64,000 nucleotides of DNA from NCBI GenBank assembly GCA_964588165.1, contig CAZPMS010000005.1, positions 3,411-67,410 on the forward strand. The letters are read 5' to 3'. This DNA is from an uncultured Gammaproteobacteria bacterium (lineage in GTDB: Bacteria > Patescibacteriota > Patescibacteriia > UBA1558 > UBA10009). A program made the position numbers and the translations under genes. Below are positions 3,442 through 62,100 of the stretch, in pieces (position 1 is the stretch's first letter; each line of letters begins with the position of its first letter). Below the pieces are notes generated by a model. That model was given only the letters and a program-made list of their open reading frames with translations. It was not told the DNA's origin and made no database searches.

Positions 3442-3936
3442 ATGAAAAAAGCCTTATTAATCATTGATGTCCAAAATTATTTTATCAATAAATGGACCCA
3501 AAATGTGCCCCAAAAAATAGTTAAACTAATTGAAGAAGATGATTTTCCTATTATCATTTTCACTAAATTCGTAAATACGCCAGACAGCCATTTTGTTAAA
3601 CAATTCAACTATACAGAATGTACCAAGCCGCCTTATACCGATATAGTGGCTGATCTTTTACCTTGGGTTAAAAAGGATAACGTTTTTGTCAAAAATACTT
3701 ATTCTTCTTTTTTTGATTCTGAGTTTACCAACTATCTTAAAAAGAAAAAAATTGAGGAGCTGATAATTGTTGGGCTTGATACAGAAAATTGCGTGCTAAC
3801 AAATTCTAGGGCTGCTTTTGATAACGGCTATAAAGTTTCTGTGGTGGCCAACTGTTGCGGCAGTTCAACAAGTGGTGATGAAATGCATAAAGCTGCCTTG
3901 GAAATAATAAAAAATAATATAGGTGATGTAATTTAA
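3442..3936 (+). CDS. Isochorismatase-family cysteine hydrolase
   Basis: 164 aa. The LLIIDVQNYF ... IIVGLDTENCVLTNSRAAFDNGYKV pattern is typical of the isochorismatase-like fold, including the catalytic Cys region. Confidence 0.6.
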   Translation: MKKALLIIDVQNYFINKWTQNVPQKIVKLIEEDDFPIIIFTKFVNTPDSHFVKQFNYTECTKPPYTDIVADLLPWVKKDNVFVKNTYSSFFDSEFTNYLKKKKIEELIIVGLDTENCVLTNSRAAFDNGYKVSVVANCCGSSTSGDEMHKAALEIIKNNIGDVI

Positions 3937-3960: not shown

Positions 3961-4090
3961 TAGGACTGGGGGGTCTGGGGACGGGGCTTAACGCCAAGAC
4001 AAAATCTTTAGAAGCTTAATAAAGCTGAGAGTTAATTTTCGCCCCCAGGGGTTTTTGGTCCTTTTTGGCCGCAAAAAGGGCATAAAGAAA
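3961..4090. repeat. Copy A of a ~130-bp repeated intergenic element (second copy at 12861-12995), ending 3 nt before the polA ATG. Contains the 8-4-8 palindrome CCTTTTTG-GCCG-CAAAAAGG.
   Basis: Direct comparison of the two copies by eye shows a shared GC-rich 5' part (ctggggRcgGcgCTTArCGCCAAGACAAAAT), a shared AGCTGAGAGyTAATT block and a shared GGTTTTTGGTCCTTTTTG-N4-CAAAAAGG 3' part. Confidence 0.6.
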
Positions 4091-8165: not shown

Positions 8166-8248
8166 ATTTTTGAATTATGTATTAATATTATACTAGATGT
8201 GAGAGTTAAAAAGATTCTAGCATTTTACATTAAATAAATCAAGTCCTT

Positions 8249-12860: not shown

Positions 12861-12995
12861 ATGAATAGAGAGTCAGGGGCCTGGGGGCGGCGCTTAGCGC
12901 CAAGACAAAATAATAAAAGATAAACAGAGCTGAGAGCTAATTGGCGCCCCTAGTGGTTTTTGGTCCTTTTTGCCACCAAAAAGGACAAGTGAATT
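12861..12995. repeat. Copy B of the ~130-bp repeated element (see 3961-4090). Contains CCTTTTTG-CCAC-CAAAAAGG.
   Basis: About 75-80% identity to copy A over its length, with the palindrome arms perfectly conserved. Lies between the uvrB promoter and the 3' end of the orphan gene at 13064-13480. Confidence 0.6.
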
Positions 12996-16150: not shown

Positions 16151-16194
16151 TTAAATTTACTCGCTACTAGCTATGTGCTACTAGCTAAAATAAT

Positions 16195-16938: not shown

Positions 16939-17003
16939 TTAGGATGCTAGAATGCTAGTTTACTGACATCCTAACCTCCTGACATCCTAACCTCCTAAAT
17001 ACT
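16939..17003 (+). promoter_or_regulatory. Conserved promoter/leader module, copy 1: extended -10 (TGcTAGAAT) plus two tandem CATCCTAACCTCCT boxes ending 7 nt before the ATG
   Basis: ttAGGATGCTAGAATGCTAGTTTACT..GACATCCTAACCTCCTGACATCCTAACCTCCTaaatactATG. Near-identical modules occur at 23144-23207 and 61314-61395. Confidence 0.5.
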
Positions 17004-17360: not shown

Positions 17361-17480
17361 ATCGAAAAAGTTTGCGGTTCGTAAAAAGTTAGAGCAGTCA
17401 GCGCGGTATGCGTAAATTCGCTTACATTACATACCGCACGAACCTACACGAACTTATCACTAACCACTGACATCTAAAAA

Positions 17481-18773
17481 ATGAAAGAATTAATTAAAAA
17501 AATGTTACCGCCGTTTATCTTGAGCTGGTATCACAAAATACTGGCTCTTTTAGCTATGGCTGTTTATAGTAATCCATCAAATAAACTTATAGTTATTGGC
17601 GTAACCGGCACCAATGGTAAATCATCAGTAGTTAATTTAATTGGTGATGTTTTGGAGAAAACCGGCTACAAAGTTGCCTGGAGCTCTACTGTTAACTTTA
17701 AAATAGCCGGTAAGGATTGGCTGAATAATAAAAAGATGACCATGTTGGGCCGGTTCCAAACCCAAAAATTTTTAAAGCAGGCTGTCCAGGTAGAATGTAA
17801 ATATGCTGTTATAGAAACTTCTTCCGAAGGCATAAAGCAGTTTAGGCACCTGGGTATTAATTATGATATTGCCGTTTTTACCAACTTAACTCCGGAACAT
17901 ATAGAATCACACGGCGGATTTGATAATTATAAAAAAGCTAAAGGAGAACTTTTCAAACATCTAACTTCCAAAACTAAAAAAACCATTAGTGGTAAACAAA
18001 TTGATAAAGTTATTGTTGCCAATAATGACGATGAATATGCCCAATACTTTTTAAACTTTAAAGCAGATAAAAAAATTACCTTCTCTATTGATCAGCATTC
18101 TGACTTTAAGGCTACTGATGTAAAGCTTGAATCCAATGGTTCATGGTTCATGGTTCATGGTTCATCATTTAAAACCAATCTCTTGGGTAAAGTAAATATC
18201 TATAATTACTTGGCAGCCATTGCCGTAGCAAAAAGCCAAAACATTGATGATAAAAAAATTAAACAAGCCCTGCTGACATATCAAGGTATACCTGGACGGT
18301 TTGAGTTTATAAAAACTGACCAAGGCTTTAAAGTAATGGTAGATTATGCACCTGAACCGGAATCATTAAAACAACTTTATAATACTTTAAAAATATTTAA
18401 CTTTAATAAAATAATTCATGTATTGGGTTCTTGCGGCGGCGGACGTGATGTAAGCCGGCAACCTGTTTTAGGAAAAATGGCTGCTGAAAATTCTGATTAT
18501 GTAATTATAACCAACGAAGACCCCTACGATGATGATCCTCAAAAAATAATTGATAACGTAGCCACAGGCGCTGAAGCCAACGGCAAAACTTTAGATAAAG
18601 ATTTATTTAAAATTTTAGACAGACACGAAGCCATTAAAAAAGCTTTATCACTTGCAACTGATGACGACTTGGTTTTAATAACTGGCAAAGGTTCAGAACA
18701 ATACATTTGTGTAGCTGGCAACAAAAAAATCCCCTGGGATGACAGAGAGGTGGTTAGAAAGTTGTTAAAATAA
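17481..18773 (+). CDS. murE: Mur ligase family protein, MurE-like (UDP-N-acetylmuramoyl-tripeptide synthetase)
   Basis: 430 aa with the P-loop VIGVTGTNGKSS and the middle and C-terminal Mur ligase domains. Contains an in-frame (tggttca)x4 repeat. Confidence 0.75.
   Translation: MKELIKKMLPPFILSWYHKILALLAMAVYSNPSNKLIVIGVTGTNGKSSVVNLIGDVLEKTGYKVAWSSTVNFKIAGKDWLNNKKMTMLGRFQTQKFLKQAVQVECKYAVIETSSEGIKQFRHLGINYDIAVFTNLTPEHIESHGGFDNYKKAKGELFKHLTSKTKKTISGKQIDKVIVANNDDEYAQYFLNFKADKKITFSIDQHSDFKATDVKLESNGSWFMVHGSSFKTNLLGKVNIYNYLAAIAVAKSQNIDDKKIKQALLTYQGIPGRFEFIKTDQGFKVMVDYAPEPESLKQLYNTLKIFNFNKIIHVLGSCGGGRDVSRQPVLGKMAAENSDYVIITNEDPYDDDPQKIIDNVATGAEANGKTLDKDLFKILDRHEAIKKALSLATDDDLVLITGKGSEQYICVAGNKKIPWDDREVVRKLLK
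18137..18164. repeat. Heptamer tandem repeat (tggttca)x4 inside murE. Encodes GSWFMVHGSS.
   Basis: Seen directly. The same heptamer is repeated at 39311-39329 and once more at 39862-39876 inside the O-antigen ligase gene. Confidence 0.8.
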
Positions 18774-23143: not shown

Positions 23144-23207
23144 AAGAATGCTAGAATGTCAGTTTACTATCGTTCTAACCTCCTAGCATCCTAACCTTCT
23201 ATTAAAT
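23144..23207 (+). promoter_or_regulatory. Conserved promoter/leader module, copy 2, between rpoB and rpoC (extended -10 TGcTAGAAT plus CATCCTAACCTTCT box before the ATG)
   Basis: taAGAATGCTAGAATGTCAGTTTACT...TAGCATCCTAACCTTCTattaaatATG. Compare 16939-17003 and 61314-61395. Confidence 0.5.
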
Positions 23208-38645: not shown

Positions 38646-40085
38646 ATGTTTTACTACCTTTTTATTATCATTTTCTACCTGTTATTTGCCTATCTTTGTG
38701 CTAAAAACATCCGCTGGGGTATTTATACAGTTGTAGCCTTACTGCCAACTTATTTGATAAGATATACTGTTTTTGGCATCCCAGGAACTTTACTGGAAGG
38801 CATGATCTGGATTTTATTTATTGTCTGGCTAATCAAATTAAAGCAGGAAAAAAACCTAAGCTTTAATCCTTTAGTTTGGATAAAAAATATATTTAATCAT
38901 CAATCATCAATCATCAATCATAATCCCGTCCCTGATAAACTCAAACTGCCCTTGATTCTATTCCTAATCGCCTCCACCTTCGCCACATTTATTTCCACCA
39001 ATCAACTGGCTGCAGCCGGTATTTGGAAAGCTTATTTTATAGAACCCCTGCTGTTTTTTATAGTTTTTATCTACACAATAAAAAACCCGGTCCACTTTAA
39101 AAAAGCTGTTAGATTTTTAGGGCTAACTGTTTTAGCTATTGGCGTATTTGCAGTAATTCAAAAACTGACTGGGGTGTTAATTTCTAATCCTTTTTGGGCA
39201 GACGAAGCTACTAGGCGAATAACCACCTTTTTCGGCTATCCTAATGCCAATGCTTTATTTGTAGCCCCTGTCTTACTTTTATTAATAGGAAACTTAATTT
39301 CTGATTATAGTTCATGGTTCATGGTTCATAAAAATAACTCGTTATCCATAAACCATAAACTCTGGTGGATTATCTATTATATTATTTGCATTATACTTGG
39401 CACACTGACAATCATTTTTGCCAAATCCACCGGCGGCCTAATCGGGCTCGTTGCCGGCTTAATCTTTTTCTTAATTTTTTATAAAAAAACTAGGTTATTT
39501 ACCTTACTGGCTATTTTGATAATAAGTGCCGGATTGAATTTTTCGACCGGGATTAAAAATAAAATAACTGATACTTTTGCTACCACTTCACAAACCCATT
39601 TACCCTTGGATGCTTCTGATATTCATATGAGATCACAGCAATGGCGCGAAGCTTCTCAAATGCTTATGGATACGCCTGTTTTTGGAGCAGGCTTGGCCGG
39701 TTACCAAAATTTAATGGTTCCCTACCACCAAAATCCGCATGTAGAAATCTATCTATACCCCCATAACTTTTTCTTAAACTTTTGGACAGAAACCGGCTTG
39801 CTTGGCTTAGTTTCAATTATTTGGATTTTATTTGTCTTCTTTTGGTTAGGCCATAGATCATGGTTCATGAATAATAAGAACAACCCAAAGCCCATAAACC
39901 ATAATCAAATATTGACTTTAACGACCAGCATGGCTATGATAACGCTCCTGGTCCACGGCCTGGTTGATGTGCCATATTTTAAAAATGACTTATCATTTTT
40001 ATTCTGGATAATTATAGGCTTGATGATAGTTATATATAATCAATCACGAATAAACACAAATGGTTCACCAATAACTCACAAATAA
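38646..40085 (+). CDS. O-antigen ligase / polymerase-like membrane protein (Wzy_C domain)
   Basis: 479 aa, polytopic, with a PHNFFLNFWTETGLLGLVSIIWIL motif region typical of WaaL/Wzy-like proteins. Carries three in-frame heptamer-repeat insertions. Confidence 0.55.
   Translation: MFYYLFIIIFYLLFAYLCAKNIRWGIYTVVALLPTYLIRYTVFGIPGTLLEGMIWILFIVWLIKLKQEKNLSFNPLVWIKNIFNHQSSIINHNPVPDKLKLPLILFLIASTFATFISTNQLAAAGIWKAYFIEPLLFFIVFIYTIKNPVHFKKAVRFLGLTVLAIGVFAVIQKLTGVLISNPFWADEATRRITTFFGYPNANALFVAPVLLLLIGNLISDYSSWFMVHKNNSLSINHKLWWIIYYIICIILGTLTIIFAKSTGGLIGLVAGLIFFLIFYKKTRLFTLLAILIISAGLNFSTGIKNKITDTFATTSQTHLPLDASDIHMRSQQWREASQMLMDTPVFGAGLAGYQNLMVPYHQNPHVEIYLYPHNFFLNFWTETGLLGLVSIIWILFVFFWLGHRSWFMNNKNNPKPINHNQILTLTTSMAMITLLVHGLVDVPYFKNDLSFLFWIIIGLMIVIYNQSRINTNGSPITHK
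38896..38923. repeat. Heptamer tandem repeat (aatcatc)x3.5 inside the O-antigen ligase gene. Encodes HQSSIINH.
   Basis: Shares a 23-nt identical string with the reverse complement of 9116-9139 in truB. Confidence 0.8.
39311..39329. repeat. Heptamer repeat (tggttca)x2.5. Encodes SSWFMVH.
   Basis: Same unit as in murE (18137-18164). A further single unit at 39862-39876 encodes SWFM. Confidence 0.75.
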
Positions 40086-47679: not shown

Positions 47680-47838
47680 ATAGTAAAACATAGAAAAATA
47701 TTGTATAATAAAGATAGTTTAATAATTAGTTATCCACATAATAAATATTTTATATATTAAAAAAATAAATCAATATTGAAACTTACTTAAAATACTTTGG
47801 TTTAAGTGGATTCAATAATTAAGAAAGGGGGTGAAGAA

Positions 47839-48219
47839 ATGAAAAAATTCTTAACCAAAAAAAATGTTCTTTCACTGGCTGGCTTAACTCTAGGGCTTAT
47901 GCCGGCAGTAGTTTCTGCCCAAGCATCTTTAGGAATTGAGGCTGCTGCCAGTACTGGTTTAGGTTCAAGAGACCTTAAAGATACCATTACATCTGTTTTA
48001 AATGTTTTATTGGGTTTCTTGGGTATTATTGCTGTCATTGTTATTTTACTTGGTGGCTTTAAGTGGATGACTGCAGGTGGTAACGAAGATAAAGTTGCTG
48101 AAGCTAAAAAACTTATTGGCGCAGGTATTGTCGGTTTAGTTATTATCTTAGCAGCTTACGCTATCGCTATTTACGTTATCAATACTATTTCAACGGCTAC
48201 AGTAGATATAGGAGGATAG
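47839..48219 (+). CDS. Pilin-like array member P2
   Basis: 126 aa from the Met with the strong RBS AGGGGGTGAAGAA-ATG (track ORF starts at 47806). Core ILLGGFKWMTAGGNEDKVAEAKKLIGAGIVGLVII. Confidence 0.75.
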   Translation: MKKFLTKKNVLSLAGLTLGLMPAVVSAQASLGIEAAASTGLGSRDLKDTITSVLNVLLGFLGIIAVIVILLGGFKWMTAGGNEDKVAEAKKLIGAGIVGLVIILAAYAIAIYVINTISTATVDIGG

Positions 48220-48287
48220 TGGCTGTATAGACTTAAGAGACTTAGATATTTAGTATTCTATTTAACTTGAATACAATTTAGACAAAT

Positions 48288-48319
48288 CCTCCTGAAGTGT
48301 ATTATTCTTCTTCAGGAGG
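48288..48319 (+). other. 10-bp perfect hairpin cctcctgaag-N12-cttcaggagg between P2 and P3. Its 3' arm contains an AGGAGG SD-like sequence.
   Basis: Seen directly. No T-run follows. The hairpin lies about 30 nt upstream of the P3 start. Confidence 0.4.
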
Positions 48320-48351
48320 AAAGTGTAGATTGTATAAGCCACAATAATAGA

Positions 48352-48810
48352 ATGGACTTCCTCTTTAAAAACAAAAAAAATATAAAAAAGGGTATCTTTA
48401 CCCTATTTTTATTATTGGTTGCTGTTTCTATGATGCCTATCAATGTCAGTGCCGAAACTGATGTTGCCGATGTTGCCGAAGATTTTTTAACCAACGTAGC
48501 CCAGCAAGGCGGAGTAATCCAAGATCCGCAATCAGCTCCCACGGCAGCCCAACTAATTGGCATAAAAATAAAAACCATTCTTAATTTTGTAGGAGTTATC
48601 TTTTTTATTTTAGTTATTTATGGTGGAATAATCTGGATGACAGCCAGTGGCAATGAAGAACAAGTGCAAAAAGCCGTAAAAATATTCAAAGGGGCAGTTA
48701 TTGGAATTATTGTAGTAATACTTGCCTACCTATTAACTAATTATGTTGTTTTTAAAATATCTGATCTAAACCAAATTAGCGAGCCAACTATTGAAGAAGA
48801 TCCTATATAA
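48352..48810 (+). CDS. Pilin-like array member P3
   Basis: 152 aa. Core VIYGGIIWMTASGNEEQVQKAVKIFKGAVIGIIVVILAY. Confidence 0.75.
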   Translation: MDFLFKNKKNIKKGIFTLFLLLVAVSMMPINVSAETDVADVAEDFLTNVAQQGGVIQDPQSAPTAAQLIGIKIKTILNFVGVIFFILVIYGGIIWMTASGNEEQVQKAVKIFKGAVIGIIVVILAYLLTNYVVFKISDLNQISEPTIEEDPI

Positions 48811-48821
48811 TCCTAAACAAA

Positions 48822-49187
48822 ATGAAAAAAGGTCATAAAATTCTACTAATTCTCACTATGGTAAGCCTGGTTTTTTGCCTGGCAAAATTTTCTTTAGCTG
48901 CAGAAATTGATGATGTAATTACTGACTTGGATAATGTTGCAGGACAGGCTAAAATAAACCAAGAGGTTACAACCTTTGAAATTATAGGTACTTTTATTAA
49001 AACTTTTCTTACTTTTATAGGGGCTATTTTTTTACTGTTAATGGTTTATGGCGGGGTTAAATGGATGATGGCCAGCGGCAACGAAGAGAAGATTAAGCAG
49101 GCTTCTGACCTAATTTCCAAAGCAATTATTGGCCTAATTATCATTATCATGGCTTATTTACTAACTAACTATTTTATTTTTAGATAA
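48822..49187 (+). CDS. Pilin-like array member P4
   Basis: 121 aa. Core MVYGGVKWMMASGNEEKIKQASDLISKAIIGLIIIIMAY. Confidence 0.75.
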   Translation: MKKGHKILLILTMVSLVFCLAKFSLAAEIDDVITDLDNVAGQAKINQEVTTFEIIGTFIKTFLTFIGAIFLLLMVYGGVKWMMASGNEEKIKQASDLISKAIIGLIIIIMAYLLTNYFIFR

Positions 49188-49188
49188 T

Positions 49189-49641
49189 ATGAAAACTATA
49201 AAACTAATTTTGCTTATTTTCGCCATAACAGCCCTCTTAAATCCGCCGCTAATAGCCAATGCGCAAGAAAAGGATTTTGCCTGCCCCTATGATACTTTTG
49301 AGGAATGCCAAGAATGGGCACTAGGGCAAGTTGGTGAAACCAGCGGCTATGGCGAGCCCGGGCCCGTTTCTGAAGAGCTTATTGCCCAAAGAGTTGGCCA
49401 AATTATTAGTCTTGTTTTAGGCTTTTTAGGAGTTATATTTTTATTTTTAATAGTTTACTCTGGCGTCCAATGGATGACAGGCGGTGGTAATGACGAAAGG
49501 ATTACTAAAGCAAAAAAAAGAATGATCCAAGCAGTTATTGGTTTGGCTATTACTGTTTCTGCTTTTGTTTTAACAAACTTTATTATAGATAGGCTTCAGC
49601 CCAATATTACCAATAATATAAATGAAGAAGAGCCCATTTAA
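49189..49641 (+). CDS. Pilin-like array member P5
   Basis: 150 aa. Core IVYSGVQWMTGGGNDERITKAKKRMIQAVIGLAITVSAF. The ectodomain contains CPYDTFEEC. Confidence 0.75.
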   Translation: MKTIKLILLIFAITALLNPPLIANAQEKDFACPYDTFEECQEWALGQVGETSGYGEPGPVSEELIAQRVGQIISLVLGFLGVIFLFLIVYSGVQWMTGGGNDERITKAKKRMIQAVIGLAITVSAFVLTNFIIDRLQPNITNNINEEEPI

Positions 49642-49652
49642 TAAATAAAATT

Positions 49653-50024
49653 ATGAAATTAATATTAAAATCTGCCATAATCTTAATTCTTATTACCTTT
49701 AGTTTTTCTTTGGTTGTACAAGCGCAGGTAAATACTGATTTAGTTAGCGACGCCGCTGGAGGCGCCGGCTTTGATACTAGCCAAAGTGATGAAACTATTG
49801 CCCAAAGAGTAGGTGCTATTATTAGTATAATTCTAAGTTTTGTCGGAACAATCTTCTTTATTTTAGTGATTGTATCCGGCATTCAATGGATGACAGCCGG
49901 CGGCAACGAAGAAAAGGTTACCAAAGCCCGCACCAGATTGGTCCAAGCTTCTATTGGCCTGGCTATTACTGTGGCTGCCTACTTTATCACCTGGTTTATC
50001 AGTAATACCTTAGGGGCAGTTTAA
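49653..50024 (+). CDS. Pilin-like array member P6
   Basis: 123 aa. Core VIVSGIQWMTAGGNEEKVTKARTRLVQASIGLAITVAAY. Confidence 0.75.
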   Translation: MKLILKSAIILILITFSFSLVVQAQVNTDLVSDAAGGAGFDTSQSDETIAQRVGAIISIILSFVGTIFFILVIVSGIQWMTAGGNEEKVTKARTRLVQASIGLAITVAAYFITWFISNTLGAV

Positions 50025-50043
50025 ATAAACTTTAAGGCTATAT

Positions 50044-50709
50044 ATGGATAAAAAACTTCTAAAAAGAGTATTGCTATCTTTAATTATAGGTATTTTTTTA
50101 GTTGGGGGTTCTATTTTTGCCCAAGATATTGGTTTAGGCAACACACTTGATATAGTGGCCGATTCTGCCGGCGTCCAAACCAATGTTACTGATCCAACCC
50201 TGCCAGATACCATTATTGGCGCCATAATTACCTGGGTGTTAGGCTTTATTGGCGTACTATTTTTAAGTTTTATTATTTTTGCCGGCTACCAATGGATGAC
50301 AGCCGGCGGCAATGAGGAAAAAGTGGATAAATCTAAAAAAAGAATTATCAGTTCAGTTATCGGCCTGGCTTTAGTCTTTTTCGCTTTTATAATTTCCAAT
50401 CTTATTTTTGAATTCTTTTATGAACAAACTAACAAACAATATGATCAAGGTCCTGAATATGGCGAAGGCCAAATGATTAGTTGTGAAAATAATTCTGATT
50501 GCCCAATAGACCAGCCAGTTTGTACTGAAAGTGGCATTTGGAAATTCTGCTCTTGCAACAACAATTCTGATTGTATAGGCGTCCCTGGCAAGCCAATCTG
50601 CGGTGAAATTGCCTTAAGAATCAACCGCTGTGTAGAATGTGCCAACGATAATAATTGTGCCGAAGGAGAATATTGCGATTTAACTACTTATACTTGTGAA
50701 GAGGAATAA
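50044..50709 (+). CDS. Pilin-like array member P7 with a Cys-rich C-terminal extension (~12 Cys)
   Basis: 221 aa. Core IIFAGYQWMTAGGNEEKVDKSKKRIISSVIGLALVFFAF, then ...CENNSDCPIDQPVCTESGIWKFCSCNNNSDC... Confidence 0.75.
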   Translation: MDKKLLKRVLLSLIIGIFLVGGSIFAQDIGLGNTLDIVADSAGVQTNVTDPTLPDTIIGAIITWVLGFIGVLFLSFIIFAGYQWMTAGGNEEKVDKSKKRIISSVIGLALVFFAFIISNLIFEFFYEQTNKQYDQGPEYGEGQMISCENNSDCPIDQPVCTESGIWKFCSCNNNSDCIGVPGKPICGEIALRINRCVECANDNNCAEGEYCDLTTYTCEEE

Positions 50710-50713
50710 GTTT

Positions 50714-51601
50714 ATGTTTTATAAAAAAATTACAAAATTTGGCTGGTTAATAATTATTTTGGCTTTTATTTTTTTAATTTCTGCCCAATCTAGCCAAGCT
50801 GCCTTCCAAGATGATAATCAAAATTTTTTAGAGAAAGCTGGCCTTTCAGCCAGTTACAGAACAGCTGAACAAGGACAGGAAGGTTATATAAATCCCATAA
50901 TCGCCAACTCTATTAACACCATAATCGGTTTTATTGGTGTAATTTTTCTACTTTTGGTAATTTATTCCGGTATCCAATGGATGGCCTCTGGAGGAAATGA
51001 AGAAACCATTGCCAAAGCCAGAAAAAGAGTCATTAACGGTACCATCGGGGTAGGCTTAACTTTAGCCGCTTTTATTGTAACCAACTTAGTTTACAATTTC
51101 TTTGATGAAAGATTTCTAAAAGAACCGGGTGCCGGCCCTCAATCACCACCTTATTTTGAAGAAGTAGACTGTGTTACCGATGCCCAATGCTCTGATAGAA
51201 TTGGGCCGATTTCCGGCAATCCTTATCTATGTGATGAGGGTAGAGGTTTTTGTGTGGAGTGTTTGTTTGATGCTGACTGTAATGATTCCAATTATGAATG
51301 TAATACAACCTACGGATTATGTGTTCCCAGAGACGGCTTAAGTTGCAATAGTATTGCTGTAAGAGATTATTGCATTTCTAATGCTGATTGTAGGTGGGAA
51401 ACCGCTCATGGAAATAGAACGGCTTGGGAAGATCAAGAAGGCACCTGTGTATCAATAGATGAATATCTTTGTGATAGCCAATGTTCTAACAATACACCTT
51501 ACTGCCTTGAGGATGAAAACACCTGTGTTAGGTGCACTCAACAAAGTGATTGTGGCTTGATTGGCTGGTGCACGCCTGATAATGAATGTTTCTTTGATTA
51601 A
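50714..51601 (+). CDS. Pilin-like array member P8 with a long Cys-rich C-terminal extension (~24 Cys)
   Basis: About 295 aa from the Met with RBS GAGGAATAAGTTT-ATG (track ORF starts at 50696). Core VIYSGIQWMASGGNEETIAKARKRVINGTIGVGLTLAAF, then repeated C-x-DC / CxxC modules. Confidence 0.75.
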   Translation: MFYKKITKFGWLIIILAFIFLISAQSSQAAFQDDNQNFLEKAGLSASYRTAEQGQEGYINPIIANSINTIIGFIGVIFLLLVIYSGIQWMASGGNEETIAKARKRVINGTIGVGLTLAAFIVTNLVYNFFDERFLKEPGAGPQSPPYFEEVDCVTDAQCSDRIGPISGNPYLCDEGRGFCVECLFDADCNDSNYECNTTYGLCVPRDGLSCNSIAVRDYCISNADCRWETAHGNRTAWEDQEGTCVSIDEYLCDSQCSNNTPYCLEDENTCVRCTQQSDCGLIGWCTPDNECFFD

Positions 51602-51605
51602 TAAT

Positions 51606-51992
51606 ATGAAAAATATCTTAAAAAAAATTACATCTTTAATTTCCATTTGGTTGGTTTTCCCTCTTACTGTTTTAGCGGTCCAGTCTTCTAAAAACAGGCT
51701 GGACGATATTGCACCTTCGGCCGGTTTTGAAACTTCTCCAAATAGCATCCAAGGAATAATTGTAAGCGTTATAACTTATGCCCTGGGTTTTGTTGGAATA
51801 GTATTTTTAATTTTAATGATTTATTCAGGCACCCAATGGATAGCCGCCGGAGGCAACGAAGACATAATTACCAAAGCCAAGAGCAGGTTTAAGCAGGCAG
51901 TTATCGGCTTTGTGGTTATTGGTATTGCTTATGGTCTTACAATTTTAATTGTTAAATTATTAGAAGCTTCTACCTCCAATACTTATTTATAA
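51606..51992 (+). CDS. Pilin-like array member P9
   Basis: 128 aa from the internal Met (track ORF 51561). Core MIYSGTQWIAAGGNEDIITKAKSRFKQAVIGFVVIGIAY. Confidence 0.75.
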   Translation: MKNILKKITSLISIWLVFPLTVLAVQSSKNRLDDIAPSAGFETSPNSIQGIIVSVITYALGFVGIVFLILMIYSGTQWIAAGGNEDIITKAKSRFKQAVIGFVVIGIAYGLTILIVKLLEASTSNTYL

Positions 51993-51993
51993 T

Positions 51994-52593
51994 ATGAATT
52001 TTCTAAAGAAACTAATTATCCCTATAAATATCGCAATAAGTTTTTTAATAAGCAAGGTTGCACTAGCGCAAAATACTGATCCGCTGTCCAGACTGCAAAG
52101 AACGGGCTTGGGCGCCAGCTTACCCGATACCGAGGCCGACCCCCAGAGAATAATTGTTAATATTGTTGTTTATATTTTAGGTTTTGTAGCTATATTTTTC
52201 TTGGGCAGCATTATTTACGCCGGCTACCAATGGATGGCTTCTGGAGGTAACGAAGAAAATATTTCCAAAGCTAAGAATAGGTTAAAAAATTCAATTATTG
52301 GCATAGTTATAATTGTCAGTTCTTATACCGTTACTTTATTTGTTAATGATGCAATATATAAGGCCACTTGCACTGACGGTTATTACTGTCCTCCATCTAG
52401 GCCACAAGAAACTGGTGAGTGCGGCACTGATGCCGACTGTGAAGACTATTTTGGCAGTGATAATTGGGGCTGTAATAAATATAATAGCTGTATGGATAAT
52501 TCTTGCTCTGGCGATAATGCTGATGAATATTGTTATGAAATTTTCAGCGAAGAACATGTTTGCCAAGATAATCGCTGTAGAATTCCCGATTAA
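51994..52593 (+). CDS. Pilin-like array member P10 with a Cys-rich C-terminal extension (~14 Cys)
   Basis: 199 aa. Core IIYAGYQWMASGGNEENISKAKNRLKNSIIGIVIIVSSY, then CTDGYYCPPS...CGTDADCEDY... Confidence 0.75.
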   Translation: MNFLKKLIIPINIAISFLISKVALAQNTDPLSRLQRTGLGASLPDTEADPQRIIVNIVVYILGFVAIFFLGSIIYAGYQWMASGGNEENISKAKNRLKNSIIGIVIIVSSYTVTLFVNDAIYKATCTDGYYCPPSRPQETGECGTDADCEDYFGSDNWGCNKYNSCMDNSCSGDNADEYCYEIFSEEHVCQDNRCRIPD

Positions 52594-59829: not shown

Positions 59830-60852
59830 TTATTTTTTCAATTTTCTTTTAAAATAATTCACCCAGGGAACTTGATTGGGGTTAACTTGATTATTTTTTG
59901 CTAATTGATATGAAAGTAAGCTGCCTAAAATTAACATTTCCACTGATTGTTCCAGTTTATTGCCTAAAAATTCCATGTGTTGGTATTTTATTTTCTGTTT
60001 AGCTAAAACCTCCTCAGTTATTTTAAACCGTTTTTGATTCCTTAAATGGTAATCGGTTGAATTAAAGAAAAGAAAATATAAACTTTGGCGGTTAGATTTA
60101 GGAAAAGTTAAACCCTCCAACAAATGATGGTTAAGTTCAGGAATAGGATAATACAATGTGGTTTGTTTGGCTGACTCATTTATTTGATTAGCCATTATGT
60201 GGGCATTGCCCAATAAATGCTCGGCAGAAATTATTACCGGAATCTTGCCTGATAACTTTTTAGCCAACTGATTTACCAAGGCTCTTTTTGTATTTTTTTT
60301 ATAATTATCTTCGGTTGATTTTCTAAATTGGTTGATTTGAGTGGCTGAAATTTTAATTTTTCCGATTTTCTTAAGTACAGCCAAAATTGAACCTATAAAA
60401 TAGCCAGTTCCCATTCTGGGTTGGCCCGAAGGGTTATTAATGGGATCAAATTTATACAGTGGCCAGTTATTCCTTTTGGCCATAGTTGCCAGTTGGCCAC
60501 CCGAGGTGATAACTACAACCTTACATTTAAGTTTCTTAGCCTGCTTGCCAGCTGATAAAACTTCCTCAGTTGATCCTGAATAACTTAATAAAAAAACCAA
60601 AGTTTTGCTGTCCACAAACTTTGGCAGATTATAATCTCTTACTTGGCTGATAGATGATTTTATTTCCTGGCCAAAAAGGTTGCTAACTAAATCAACCGGT
60701 AATTGTGAGCCGCCCATACCACAAGTAACAATTCTATTTATTGACCGGTAAGTTTTAGGTAATTTGATTTGTCCAGCCTCTTTAAATGACTGTTTTACCT
60801 GTTCACCAAGTAGCCTAATTGATTCTAGGTAGTTTTTTTCCGCTTTCTTCAT
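59830..60852 (-). CDS. Bifunctional phosphoglucose/phosphomannose isomerase (SIS domain)
   Basis: ITCGMGGSQLPVD ... FLLSYSGSTEEVL ... VVVITSGGQL, the archaeal-type PGI/PMI pattern. Confidence 0.6.
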   Translation of the reverse strand: MKKAEKNYLESIRLLGEQVKQSFKEAGQIKLPKTYRSINRIVTCGMGGSQLPVDLVSNLFGQEIKSSISQVRDYNLPKFVDSKTLVFLLSYSGSTEEVLSAGKQAKKLKCKVVVITSGGQLATMAKRNNWPLYKFDPINNPSGQPRMGTGYFIGSILAVLKKIGKIKISATQINQFRKSTEDNYKKNTKRALVNQLAKKLSGKIPVIISAEHLLGNAHIMANQINESAKQTTLYYPIPELNHHLLEGLTFPKSNRQSLYFLFFNSTDYHLRNQKRFKITEEVLAKQKIKYQHMEFLGNKLEQSVEMLILGSLLSYQLAKNNQVNPNQVPWVNYFKRKLKK

Positions 60853-60908
60853 AAAATTATTATATCAGAATTAATGTTTTTTTACCAAAGAAAAAACCAC
60901 TGAAAATT

Positions 60909-61190: not shown

Positions 61191-61313
61191 TTTCTCCTCC
61201 TTGGATCTGGTTGTAAATTACGTTTATACTATAAATTAACCATAAATAGCTAATTTGTCAGAAAAAATTCCTTGATTTCTCAACCCAAAAAAGTTAAAAT
61301 AGATACGTTTAAT

Positions 61314-61395
61314 AAGGATGCTAAAATGTCAGTTTTAAAATTATTACAACTTTAACTGACATCCTAATTTCCTGGTATCCTAACCTCCTAACTCT
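61314..61395 (+). promoter_or_regulatory. Conserved promoter/leader module, copy 3 (extended -10 TGcTAAAAT, 9-bp hairpin ATGTCAGTT/AACTGACAT, then CATCCTAATTTCCT and TATCCTAACCTCCT boxes before the yebC ATG)
   Basis: aAGGATGCTAAAATGTCAGTTTT...AACTGACATCCTAATTTCCTGGTATCCTAACCTCCTaactctATG. Confidence 0.5.
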
Positions 61396-62100
61396 ATGTC
61401 AGGACATAATAAATGGTCAAAAATTAAAAGAAAAAAGGGCATAGCTGATGCCAAGAGGTCGGCCAATTTTACCAAACTTGCCAACATAATTTCCGTAGCT
61501 GCCAGGGGAGGCAGTGATCCGGAAATGAATTTTAAATTAAGAATGGCTATTGATAAAGCCAAATCTTTTTCCTTACCAAAAGAAAATATAGAACGGGCCA
61601 TAAAACGTGGCGCCGGCGAGTTGGGAGGCAACCAGATTGAAGAAATGGTTTACGAAGGCTTTGGCCCGGAAGGCATCGCCTTAATAATTGAAGTGGTTAC
61701 CGATAATAAAAACCGGGCTTCAGCTGATGTTAAACATATTGTTTCCAAATACGGTGGTAACTTAGGCGGGCCTGGCGCTACTATGTGGATGTTTAACCAA
61801 AAAGGCGTTATTGCTTTAGATAAAAAAGAACTGGCCGATGATGAACAGTTGGAACTGATTGACACCGGAGCAGAAGATATAGAAACTGACGATGGAGTAA
61901 CAGTTTATACTTCAATTGAAAAATTTGAAACAATAAAAAGGAAGATTGATAAAATGGGCTTGCCTATTTTAGAATCTAATCTGGAATATGTGGCTAAAGA
62001 TTTAGTTAAGCCAGAAAAAGATAGCAGCCTCTTAAAACTTTTTGAAGCTTTAGATGAGTGTGATGATGTAAGTAATTTTTATTCTAATGCCGATCTCTAA
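61396..62100 (+). CDS. yebC: YebC/PmpR-family transcriptional regulator
   Basis: MSGHNKWSKIKRKKG is the canonical N-terminus, and length and architecture fit the family. Confidence 0.85.
   Translation: MSGHNKWSKIKRKKGIADAKRSANFTKLANIISVAARGGSDPEMNFKLRMAIDKAKSFSLPKENIERAIKRGAGELGGNQIEEMVYEGFGPEGIALIIEVVTDNKNRASADVKHIVSKYGGNLGGPGATMWMFNQKGVIALDKKELADDEQLELIDTGAEDIETDDGVTVYTSIEKFETIKRKIDKMGLPILESNLEYVAKDLVKPEKDSSLLKLFEALDECDDVSNFYSNADL

Follow-up and report, generated by a model that had tools for sequence, protein, structure and literature searches.

What does a short, nearly identical sequence supply to the several unrelated genes that it precedes, and how did it come to stand in front of them? 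The question is raised by the window analyzed here, a stretch of 64,000 nucleotides (contig CAZPMS010000005.1 of assembly GCA_964588165.1, positions 3,411 to 67,410) from an uncultured bacterium which its RpoC homologues place in Candidatus Komeilibacteria within the Patescibacteria or candidate phyla radiation (CPR). A cassette of 65-85 bases lies immediately 5' of start codons in this genome and resembles a promoter joined to a C/U-rich leader. The explanation that we favor, with roughly even confidence, is that it represents a young, species-specific promoter-plus-leader cassette which would supply expression independent of a Shine-Dalgarno (SD) sequence to the gene it precedes. It appears to have been copied before at least four unrelated genes, those for DUF1003, RpoC, YebC and PBP1A, and to have left a decayed remnant before a Mur-ligase gene. 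Most likely it is a new example of the already known process of promoter propagation, with unusual details in its construction from 8-nt units, its boxes of anti-SD sense and its insertion exactly at start codons, including one inside the rpoBC operon.

Three near-identical modules can be read directly from the plus strand of the window at 16939-17003, 23144-23207 and 61314-61395, the coordinates given by the initial annotation, and extend to the ATG codons of the DUF1003 gene (17004), rpoC (23208) and yebC (61396), respectively. The gene identities first proposed also hold, as DUF1003 and YebC were recognized by Pfam and the 1293-aa product is RpoC. Each module comprises TGCTA(G/A)AAT, two 16-nt C/U-rich (CU) boxes, a further 4-7 nt and the ATG, and the right half of the cassette is C/U-rich and almost G-free. 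Module 1 reads AATTAGGATGCTAGAATGCTAGTTTACTGACATCCTAACCTCCTGACATCCTAACCTCCTAAATACT-ATG and module 2, which occupies the rpoB-rpoC spacer, reads AATAAGAATGCTAGAATGTCAGTTTACTATCGTTCTAACCTCCTAGCATCCTAACCTTCTATTAAAT-ATG, while module 3 has the same plan with a 19-nt insertion following AGTTT. The proposed extended -10-like element, a consensus match, is TGCTAGAAT in module 1 (16945-16953, 50 nt before the ATG) and module 2 (23149-23157) and TGCTAAAAT in module 3 (61319-61327). Where "one or two" tandem boxes had been described, two were found in every copy: two perfect 16-nt units in module 1 (16963-16996; CTGACATCCTAACCTC x2.1, period 16, 100% matches) that contain two CATCCTAACCTCCT boxes, CGTTCTAACCTCCT and CATCCTAACCTTCT in module 2 (23171-23200), and CATCCTAATTTCCT and TATCCTAACCTCCT in module 3 (61360-61389). 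From the last box to the ATG the distance is 7 nt in modules 1 and 2 and 6 nt in module 3. The left box ARGATGCTARAATGYYAGTTT (21 nt) has 3 matches at up to 3 mismatches versus 0.03 expected from shuffles; the CU box CATCCTAAYYTCCT (14 nt) has 9 matches at up to 2 mismatches versus 1.84 expected, and all six good matches fall within modules. According to Tandem Repeats Finder and a repeat finder, all of module 1, the "promoter" box included, follows a single 8-nt register (GATGCTAG AATGCTAG TTTACTGA CATCCTAA CCTCCTGA CATCCTAA CCTCCTAA). The modules are invariant among identical strains from several JGI and ENA metagenomes.

Our survey covered the window and 10 kb on either side, ~84 kb of one genome, and revealed a fourth module ~2 kb past the window end (L133 13436-13507, about window 66031-66102). 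It directly precedes the ATG of the class-A penicillin-binding protein PBP1A (Transgly/Transpeptidase) and reads TTAGGATGTTTAGAATGTCAGTCCAAAATCCTTGCATCCTAACCTCCTAGCATCCTAGAAAT-ATG, with a truncated second box. A covariance model built on the four copies (R1) finds exactly four copies across the ~84 kb of this species, with scores of 87.3, 87.7 and 83.5 bits for modules 1, 2 and 3, and zero copies in ~145 kb from relatives and other CPR loci. The promoter-plus-box pattern gave a single chance match in a collection of metagenome contigs that does not include this organism. A phage origin was rejected, as viral contigs contained zero box matches and the three left-box matches found there were chance matches without boxes. 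A degenerate CU-box remnant, CTAACCACTGACATCTAAAAA-ATG, occupies 17460-17480 (+) up to the Mur-ligase ATG at 17481. The same leader carries CTAACCACTGACA before the ATG, of which an exact counterpart, CTAACCGCTGACA, is present at L127 4805-4817 in the syntenic NTP-transferase/Mur-ligase spacer of a relative with a 79% identical RpoC. This CU-box piece shared by the Mur-ligase spacers may be older than the cassette and may have been its seed.

The proteins encoded downstream of the modules (DUF1003, RpoC, YebC and PBP1A) are non-homologous, and so are those encoded upstream (an NTP-transferase, RpoB, a 93-aa open reading frame (ORF) on the other strand, and TyrRS). Every downstream ORF begins in the ORF listing at the ATG given above, after an in-frame stop inside the boxes, and these two features exclude an N-terminal extension of the downstream proteins. 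Because the N-terminus MPNPSS is kept in relatives, ATG 23208 is the true rpoC start, and rpoC is now preceded solely by the cassette. Plus-strand upstream ORFs were also rejected as the function of the modules, their peptides not being conserved.

Comparison with relatives points to a recent origin. The modules are absent from the covered orthologous sites in all seven relatives examined, and the gene order RuvA-FemAB-NTP-transferase-(DUF1003)-Mur ligase-rpoB-rpoC is kept in six relatives where contigs cover it. Six relatives with RpoC 76-86% identical could be compared at rpoB-rpoC, and a module is present in none (0/6). The spacer there is 2 nt (TAA-tt-ATG) in the closest relative, L138 (RpoC 86%), 23 nt in L127, 32 nt in L137, 33 nt in L136, 61 nt in L128 and, measured to the conserved MPNPSS ATG, 94 nt in L129. 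In L143/L144 DUF1003 lies at the same place after a 4-nt gap (NTP-transferase-TAA-aaat-ATG-DUF1003). The yebC genes of L139-L142 (YebC 77-79% identical) also lack the module, and the promoter tTGATTt-17-TA(A/G)AAT is conserved before yebC in L139 and L141/L142, followed by their own short leaders. Two copies therefore appear to have been driven into 2-4-nt gaps between coupled genes (rpoB/rpoC and NTP-transferase/DUF1003), and at the other two sites, where a promoter already existed, the cassette seems to have taken the place of the native leader between that promoter and the ATG. Every one of the four copies faces its gene and ends 4-7 nt before the ATG, also within divergent spacers of 205 and 149 nt, and we estimate the chance of landing beside the ATG in both of these wide spacers at roughly 0.003. 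Together these comparisons suggest a young repeat family confined to this one species.

The leader offers the ribosome no SD. The organism's own 16S gene lies 3.4 kb left of the window (L130 4641-6127) and ends ...GGAUCACCUCCUUUCUA (longer readings GGATCACCTCCTTTCTA and GGATGGATCACCTCCTTTCTAGGGAG), with a canonical anti-SD. Because of this ending the boxes have anti-SD sense, so that the check proposed in the initial annotation bears out its claim that the leader sequence CCUAACCUCCU is in the same sense as the 16S tail. Pairing of the boxes with 16S rRNA is ruled out, since a search for complementary stretches of at least 7 nt returned none, and the same-sense 8-9-mers that boxes and 16S have in common (TGACATCCT, CTAACCTC) are near chance expectation by our rough estimate. 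GGAG and GAGG are absent before the ATGs of the three window modules, as initially reported. A purine-rich complement of the 16S CCUCC, 5-10 nt before the start, is likewise lacking; the last 30 nt hold 1-2 G, and their CCUCCU has the same sense as the 16S. Across the genes surveyed, GGAG or GAGG precedes the start in 8 of 61 (about 13%), and the leaders of ordinary genes consist of 43% A, 33% T, 12% C and 12.5% G. The start regions (-30..+20) of modules 1 and 2 are open, with folding energies of -0.9 and -0.5 kcal/mol. The boxes as merely an unstructured start region were nevertheless discarded as an explanation, as openness of this degree is common to most start regions of this AT-rich genome and is not distinctive.

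Many genes of the window show leaderless-like starts, in which TGnTAnAAT or TATAAT ends exactly 6 nt before the ATG and an SD is missing. Examples are found at 501-516, at 60852-60867 (-), and before the ATGs at 3442, 38646 and 58170(-)/59750. From these starts, leaderless mRNAs would seem to be frequent in this Komeilibacteria genome. The modules do not have this arrangement of a -10 about 6-7 nt before the ATG; their -10 elements end 50, 50 and 68 nt before it. The rRNA operon appears to be split, because the 16S gene is followed by tRNAs and protein-coding genes and not by 23S (L130 4641-6127 and 6429-8985; 3.4-4.8 kb left of the window).

The left box is a candidate promoter by its match to the consensus. 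TGnTAnAAT occurs 36 times in the window, and 9 of the 36 fall within the intergenic 11%; all nine face a start codon at a distance of 6-68 nt. One of the nine, at 8214-8222(-), faces the ATG of rpsT, which was absent from the gene list used for this count and was identified separately. The rpsT (S20) promoter on the minus strand has the form TTGATT-17-TAGAAT, and its -10 region AAATGCTAGAATC has the 10-mer ATGCTAGAAT in common with the modules. Each octamer also contains a weak -10-like TAAYYT, which 8-10 nt before the ATG may give near-leaderless transcripts. The proposal that the module separates rpoC transcriptionally from rpoB is unsupported, as a terminator-like site was not found in the spacer; at this junction the cassette would add at most an internal promoter.

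The modules also contain an inverted repeat. The perfect 9-bp hairpin originally described for module 3 is real (ATGTCAGTT at 61326-61334 and AACTGACAT at 61354-61362, together 61326-61362 (+)), but it is not special to that copy because it forms the inner helix of a nested inverted repeat common to all copies, of which it is the best-preserved part. RNAalifold returned an identical nested structure from three and from four copies. The outer pairing joins AGGATGCTAG with CTRRCATCCT of box 2 through arms of 10-12 nt, and the inner pairing joins the next octamer (ATGyyAGT) with ACTGACAT at the start of box 1. In the four-copy alignment 93% of the cells pair in register versus 23-55% with the partner slid. 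Compensatory changes were seen in 0 of 14-17 pairs, in a set of four young copies only. Whole-module folds of modules 1-4 have energies of -11.5, -9.1, -22.4 and -16.9 kcal/mol (z = -1.3, -1.9, -3.9 and -2.4, the value for module 3 being about -4), and in modules 1, 2 and 4 a leader that begins past the -10 is unfolded. The hairpin would form only in transcripts begun upstream of the module. Such a transcript is certain for module 3, from the conserved ancestral promoter, likely for module 4, and possible by read-through from rpoB and the NTP-transferase gene. In module 3 a second partner is available to the leader sequence CUGACAU (61355-61362), namely AUGUCAG at the start codon of yebC (61396-61403), with 7 bp and -10.2 kcal/mol for a leader-only transcript; this pairing is in competition with the upstream arm AUGUCAGUU and might serve as a switch. 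A known RNA family was rejected, as a search of Rfam 15 returned only tRNAs at the gathering threshold and chance-level eukaryotic matches at E of 1 or less. A DnaA box, boxA and an Era-binding site were rejected, as the matches of the modules to them were too poor.

On this basis the following course of expression can be proposed. RNA polymerase would start ~7 nt after the -10 and produce a 42-60-nt leader without an SD, and as this leader would be unable to pair with the anti-SD, ribosomes would load independently of an SD, as for most genes of the organism. At the split pairs rpoB/rpoC and NTP-transferase/DUF1003, translational coupling would be replaced by an autonomous start region and the cassette would probably add an internal promoter. 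Because rpoC, an essential gene, is no longer coupled to rpoB, we infer that the 3' part of the cassette must allow SD-independent initiation. In transcripts started upstream (yebC, PBP1A and rpoB read-through), the left half would fold back on the boxes as a hairpin and leave only the last CCUAACCUCCU stretch free before the AUG. Binding of S1 or another protein to the boxes is pure conjecture. The repeat itself, its anatomy and location, its derived state and the sense of its boxes relative to the anti-SD are established by the observations; promoter activity, start-region competence and the mode of spread we infer from the sequence.

Several findings weigh against a promoter-plus-leader function. 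The leaders of the modules contain 36% C and 4% G, compared with 12% C in ordinary leaders, and for this reason the C-rich leader is not the organism's usual translation start. The initial annotation had proposed a lineage-specific promoter and translation-initiation cassette; its reuse before unrelated genes, its absence in relatives, its -10 consensus and its lack of an SD stand. The start region of module 3 folds at -6.5 kcal/mol, where the genome median is -2.9, and ranks 51 of 61. The -10 of module 4 is TAGAAT without the TG of the extended form (GTTTAGAAT). An ancestral yebC promoter, TTGATT-17-TAAAAT, is present upstream of module 3 at 61272-61300 (+), and a consensus promoter, TGCTATAAT, lies ~50 nt further upstream of module 4 (L133 13384-13392), so that the internal -10 is not needed in either copy. 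With promoters lying upstream, at least module 3 and, probably, module 4 are transcribed as 5' untranslated region (5'UTR) and their own -10 is possibly redundant. The inverted repeat is unexplained by a pure promoter-plus-leader model, and the extent of the survey, ~84 kb of a single genome, must also be counted here.

The inverted repeat could equally be a relic of the element's copying, and this consideration leads to the view, which we hold to be unlikely, that the whole cassette is a selfish non-autonomous palindromic repeat resembling MITEs (miniature transposable elements with inverted repeats) or REPINs. Such a repeat would be spread by a transposase or by hairpin-dependent copying and would survive only where it is harmless, in the interval from a stop codon or promoter to the ATG that follows, with promoter and leader properties that are incidental or that confer tolerance. 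An imperfect terminal inverted repeat (TTAGGATGCTAG ... CTAGCATCCTAA) with the in-register pairing given above, the match of the minus strand to model R1, the clean empty sites in relatives and the presence of several copies in 84 kb all agree with this account, and there are precedents in the Correia elements with their promoters and RNase III hairpins (PMC2649163) and in the mobile-promoter study that names elements emulating inverted repeats as one mechanism of spread (PMC3488235). However, the four junctions inspected by eye lack a consistent target-site duplication, ATTAA being present at both ends in module 2 only, the conserved block extends beyond the right arm (CCTCCTAA) to the ATG, and a transposase is not annotated in the ~84 kb reached. 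All four copies also have one orientation to the gene and the same distance to the ATG, which implies selection on function or a start-codon-specific target, neither of which is typical of MITEs. Functionality of the minus strand is very improbable. The reverse complement of the box, AGGAGGTTAGGATG, has the form of a perfect SD, spacer and ATG, and could drive mini-ORFs or yield an RNA that acts in antisense or as a GGA-rich, CsrA-type sponge; AGGAGG followed after 5 nt by ATG occurs twice in module 1, and GGA motifs are abundant. Nevertheless, the mini-ORFs vary in length and sequence (MSGG*, MSVN*, MLGG*, and 13- and 17-aa peptides) and were rejected since their peptides are not conserved, the ATG is lost in two boxes (ACG, ATA), a framing promoter or terminator was not found on the minus strand, and neither the constant orientation nor the constant distance relative to the plus-strand ATG would be explained.

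A transcribed cis-regulatory 5'UTR element serving a small regulon (cell wall, RNA polymerase and YebC) is somewhat less probable than a selfish repeat. In such an element the hairpin would expose CCUAACCUC within an internal loop and CCUAACCUCCU as its 3' tail. Either a factor of the S1, KH or Era type whose normal target is the 3' end of 16S, or Rho on a rut-like tract, would bind there and set translation or premature termination. This would accommodate the position of modules 3 and 4 downstream of promoters of their own, of which one is conserved in relatives, and the whole-module folds, which are consistently below those of shuffles. The combination of a helix with single-stranded (A)ACCUCCU also resembles helix 45 and the anti-SD tail of the organism's own 16S, the high C and low G content with YC every 8 nt is like that of a Rho-binding tract, and CTAACCNCTGACA recurs in the syntenic Mur-ligase spacer of the relative with 79% identical RpoC. 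Typical rut sites are C-rich, G-poor and unstructured over about 60-80 nt, though, and the C-rich tract of the cassette, at about 35-45 nt, is shorter than this. Further points against the element are the lack of compensatory change in its 14-17 pairs, the variable loop and arm spacing (the 19-nt insertion in module 3 and different arm use in module 4), the lack of a matching Rfam family and the absence of an obvious common function among the genes served. Because the element is absent from the orthologous genes of all relatives examined, a conserved regulon is excluded.

Octamer arrays in other genomes provide an additional perspective on the boxes. In L139, also a member of the Komeilibacteria, the yebC leader (L139 90-198) consists of CTATTAAT x6 up to the ATG and was found independently of the octamer pattern. 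Comparable arrays precede ruvA in the Buchananbacteria locus L027 (5350-5430; CCTAACCT x9.5), a clpB-like gene in the Paceibacterota locus L021 (4510-4632, -; TTCTAACT x14) and two genes in the Torokbacteria locus L034 (665-720 (-) and 7877-7925 (-)), which have mixed YCCTAAYN units and one of which shares TTCTAACCTCCTAGCA with module 2. Like the cassette, these CPR arrays are G-free, consist of C, U and A with an 8-nt period and are placed so that a -10-like element precedes them and the ATG follows; all run in sense and stop 0-18 nt short of a genuine gene start. They differ in being simple local arrays at single genes, without a left promoter box or inverted repeat. As three of the four array cases were found with a pattern that forces an 8-nt motif, only their position and orientation are independent evidence. 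Among the matches listed (loci L007-L125), (YCTAAYYT)n arrays are widespread in metagenome-assembled genomes of Bacteroidota, Acidobacteriota, Desulfobacterota, Planctomycetota and others; on their flanks there are often other 7-8-nt arrays or their own reverse complements. Those within 15 nt comprise 8 sense and 4 antisense cases among the matches listed, with no start-codon preference overall; the three CPR loci in this set are all sense and before a gene start. Including the Komeilibacteria twice, arrays right before start codons occur in at least five CPR lineages (the others being Torokbacteria, Buchananbacteria and Paceibacterota). They may reflect replication slippage in G-poor leaders only. 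That such arrays, often with CCUCCU, constitute an unrecognized CPR signal for SD-independent starts, or imitate the 16S 3' end for a ribosome-associated factor that reads it, is a slender prospect, slightly more so than the 5'UTR element; if it were true, the cassette would be a mobile version of this signal that can capture the expression of essential genes, rpoC among them.

The window contains other repeats as well. Short tandem repeats of other periods are present in leaders, and two of them belong to the same gene cluster as module 1: TACTAGC x4 before the NTP-transferase gene (16158-16187) and CACGAACCTA x2.7 before the Mur-ligase gene (17437-17465). A second repeated intergenic element of ~90 nt has copies that are 81% identical at 3990-4082 and 12895-12987 (+), one just before the polA ATG (4093) and the other between uvrB and the next minus-strand gene. 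It reads GCGCCAAGACAAAAT...AGCTGAGAGyTAATT..CGCCCC.AG.GGTTTTTGGTCCTTTTTG....CAAAAAGGrCA, ends in a 10-bp hairpin and has zero Rfam matches at the gathering threshold. Nine tandem paralogous small ORFs (about 120-300 aa) at 47806-52593 have the common stretch G.QWMTAGGNEE and look like a family of lineage-specific secreted or surface proteins. The heptamer ATGGTTC is repeated up to 4.3x inside coding regions, at 18136-18165 in the Mur-ligase gene and at 39306-39342 and 39852-39888 in a 479-aa ORF (38646-40085), and tracts of this kind are liable to slippage and frameshifting.

Despite the very small size and dense packing of CPR genomes, a cassette of ~75 nt was inserted between rpoB and rpoC, genes separated by 2 nt in the closest relative. 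Should the cassette be active as a promoter and start region, operons of these uncultured organisms would be rewired by copy-and-paste expression modules, and the cassette would offer a ready-made expression part for CPR genetics. Its boxes of anti-SD sense at start codons would in addition provide a testable handle on start-site selection in an organism where about 85% of the genes lack an SD. If it is merely a tolerated repeat, it would be an ordinary small mobile element.

Among known systems, unstructured leaders, rich in A/U or in pyrimidines, that function independently of an SD (PMC2176067; bioRxiv 10.1101/808485), including those used by the SD-blind ribosomes of Bacteroidia (PMC13000453), resemble the cassette in the absence of an SD and in an open, G-poor leader. 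Known S1-dependent enhancers are A/U-rich (PMC2176067; bioRxiv 10.1101/808485), whereas the boxes of the cassette are C-rich and repeat the anti-SD sequence itself. Among short inverted-repeat elements that give rise to promoters and RNase III hairpins, the Correia elements of Neisseria have been studied best; they are about 100-155 bp long, insert at TA with duplication, occur in both orientations and bind IHF (PMC2649163). The cassette resembles these and promoter-bearing MITEs (PMC2649163, PMC10969869) as a short intergenic element with terminal inverted repeats and filled and empty sites between genomes; such elements can create a promoter for the adjacent gene, and their co-transcribed hairpins affect the mRNA. 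It differs in its length of 65-85 nt, in lacking a target-site duplication and in being always directed toward and touching the ATG.

The closest category is that of putative mobile promoters (PMPs), defined as sequences of at least 50 nt with at least 80% identity upstream of non-homologous genes (Matus-Garcia, Nijveen and van Passel 2012, PMC3488235). Between modules 1 and 2, 42 of 50 nt (84%) are identical, and the flanking coding sequences are non-homologous; other module pairs reach 29-36/50 in ungapped windows and fall below 80% because of indels. As modules 1 and 2 agree with the published definition, we place the cassette with the propagated promoters, a bioinformatic category in which membership is silent on mechanism. 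The cassette shares with PMPs the occurrence of similar upstream regions of 50-100 nt before non-homologous genes in one genome, and its conservation to within a few nucleotides of the start codon parallels the PMP family of Treponema brennaborense, conserved from -5 to -120 relative to the start codon (PMC3488235). What distinguishes it from these PMPs are its 8-nt units, its CCUCCU boxes of anti-SD sense, its nested inverted repeat and the operon junctions that it splits.

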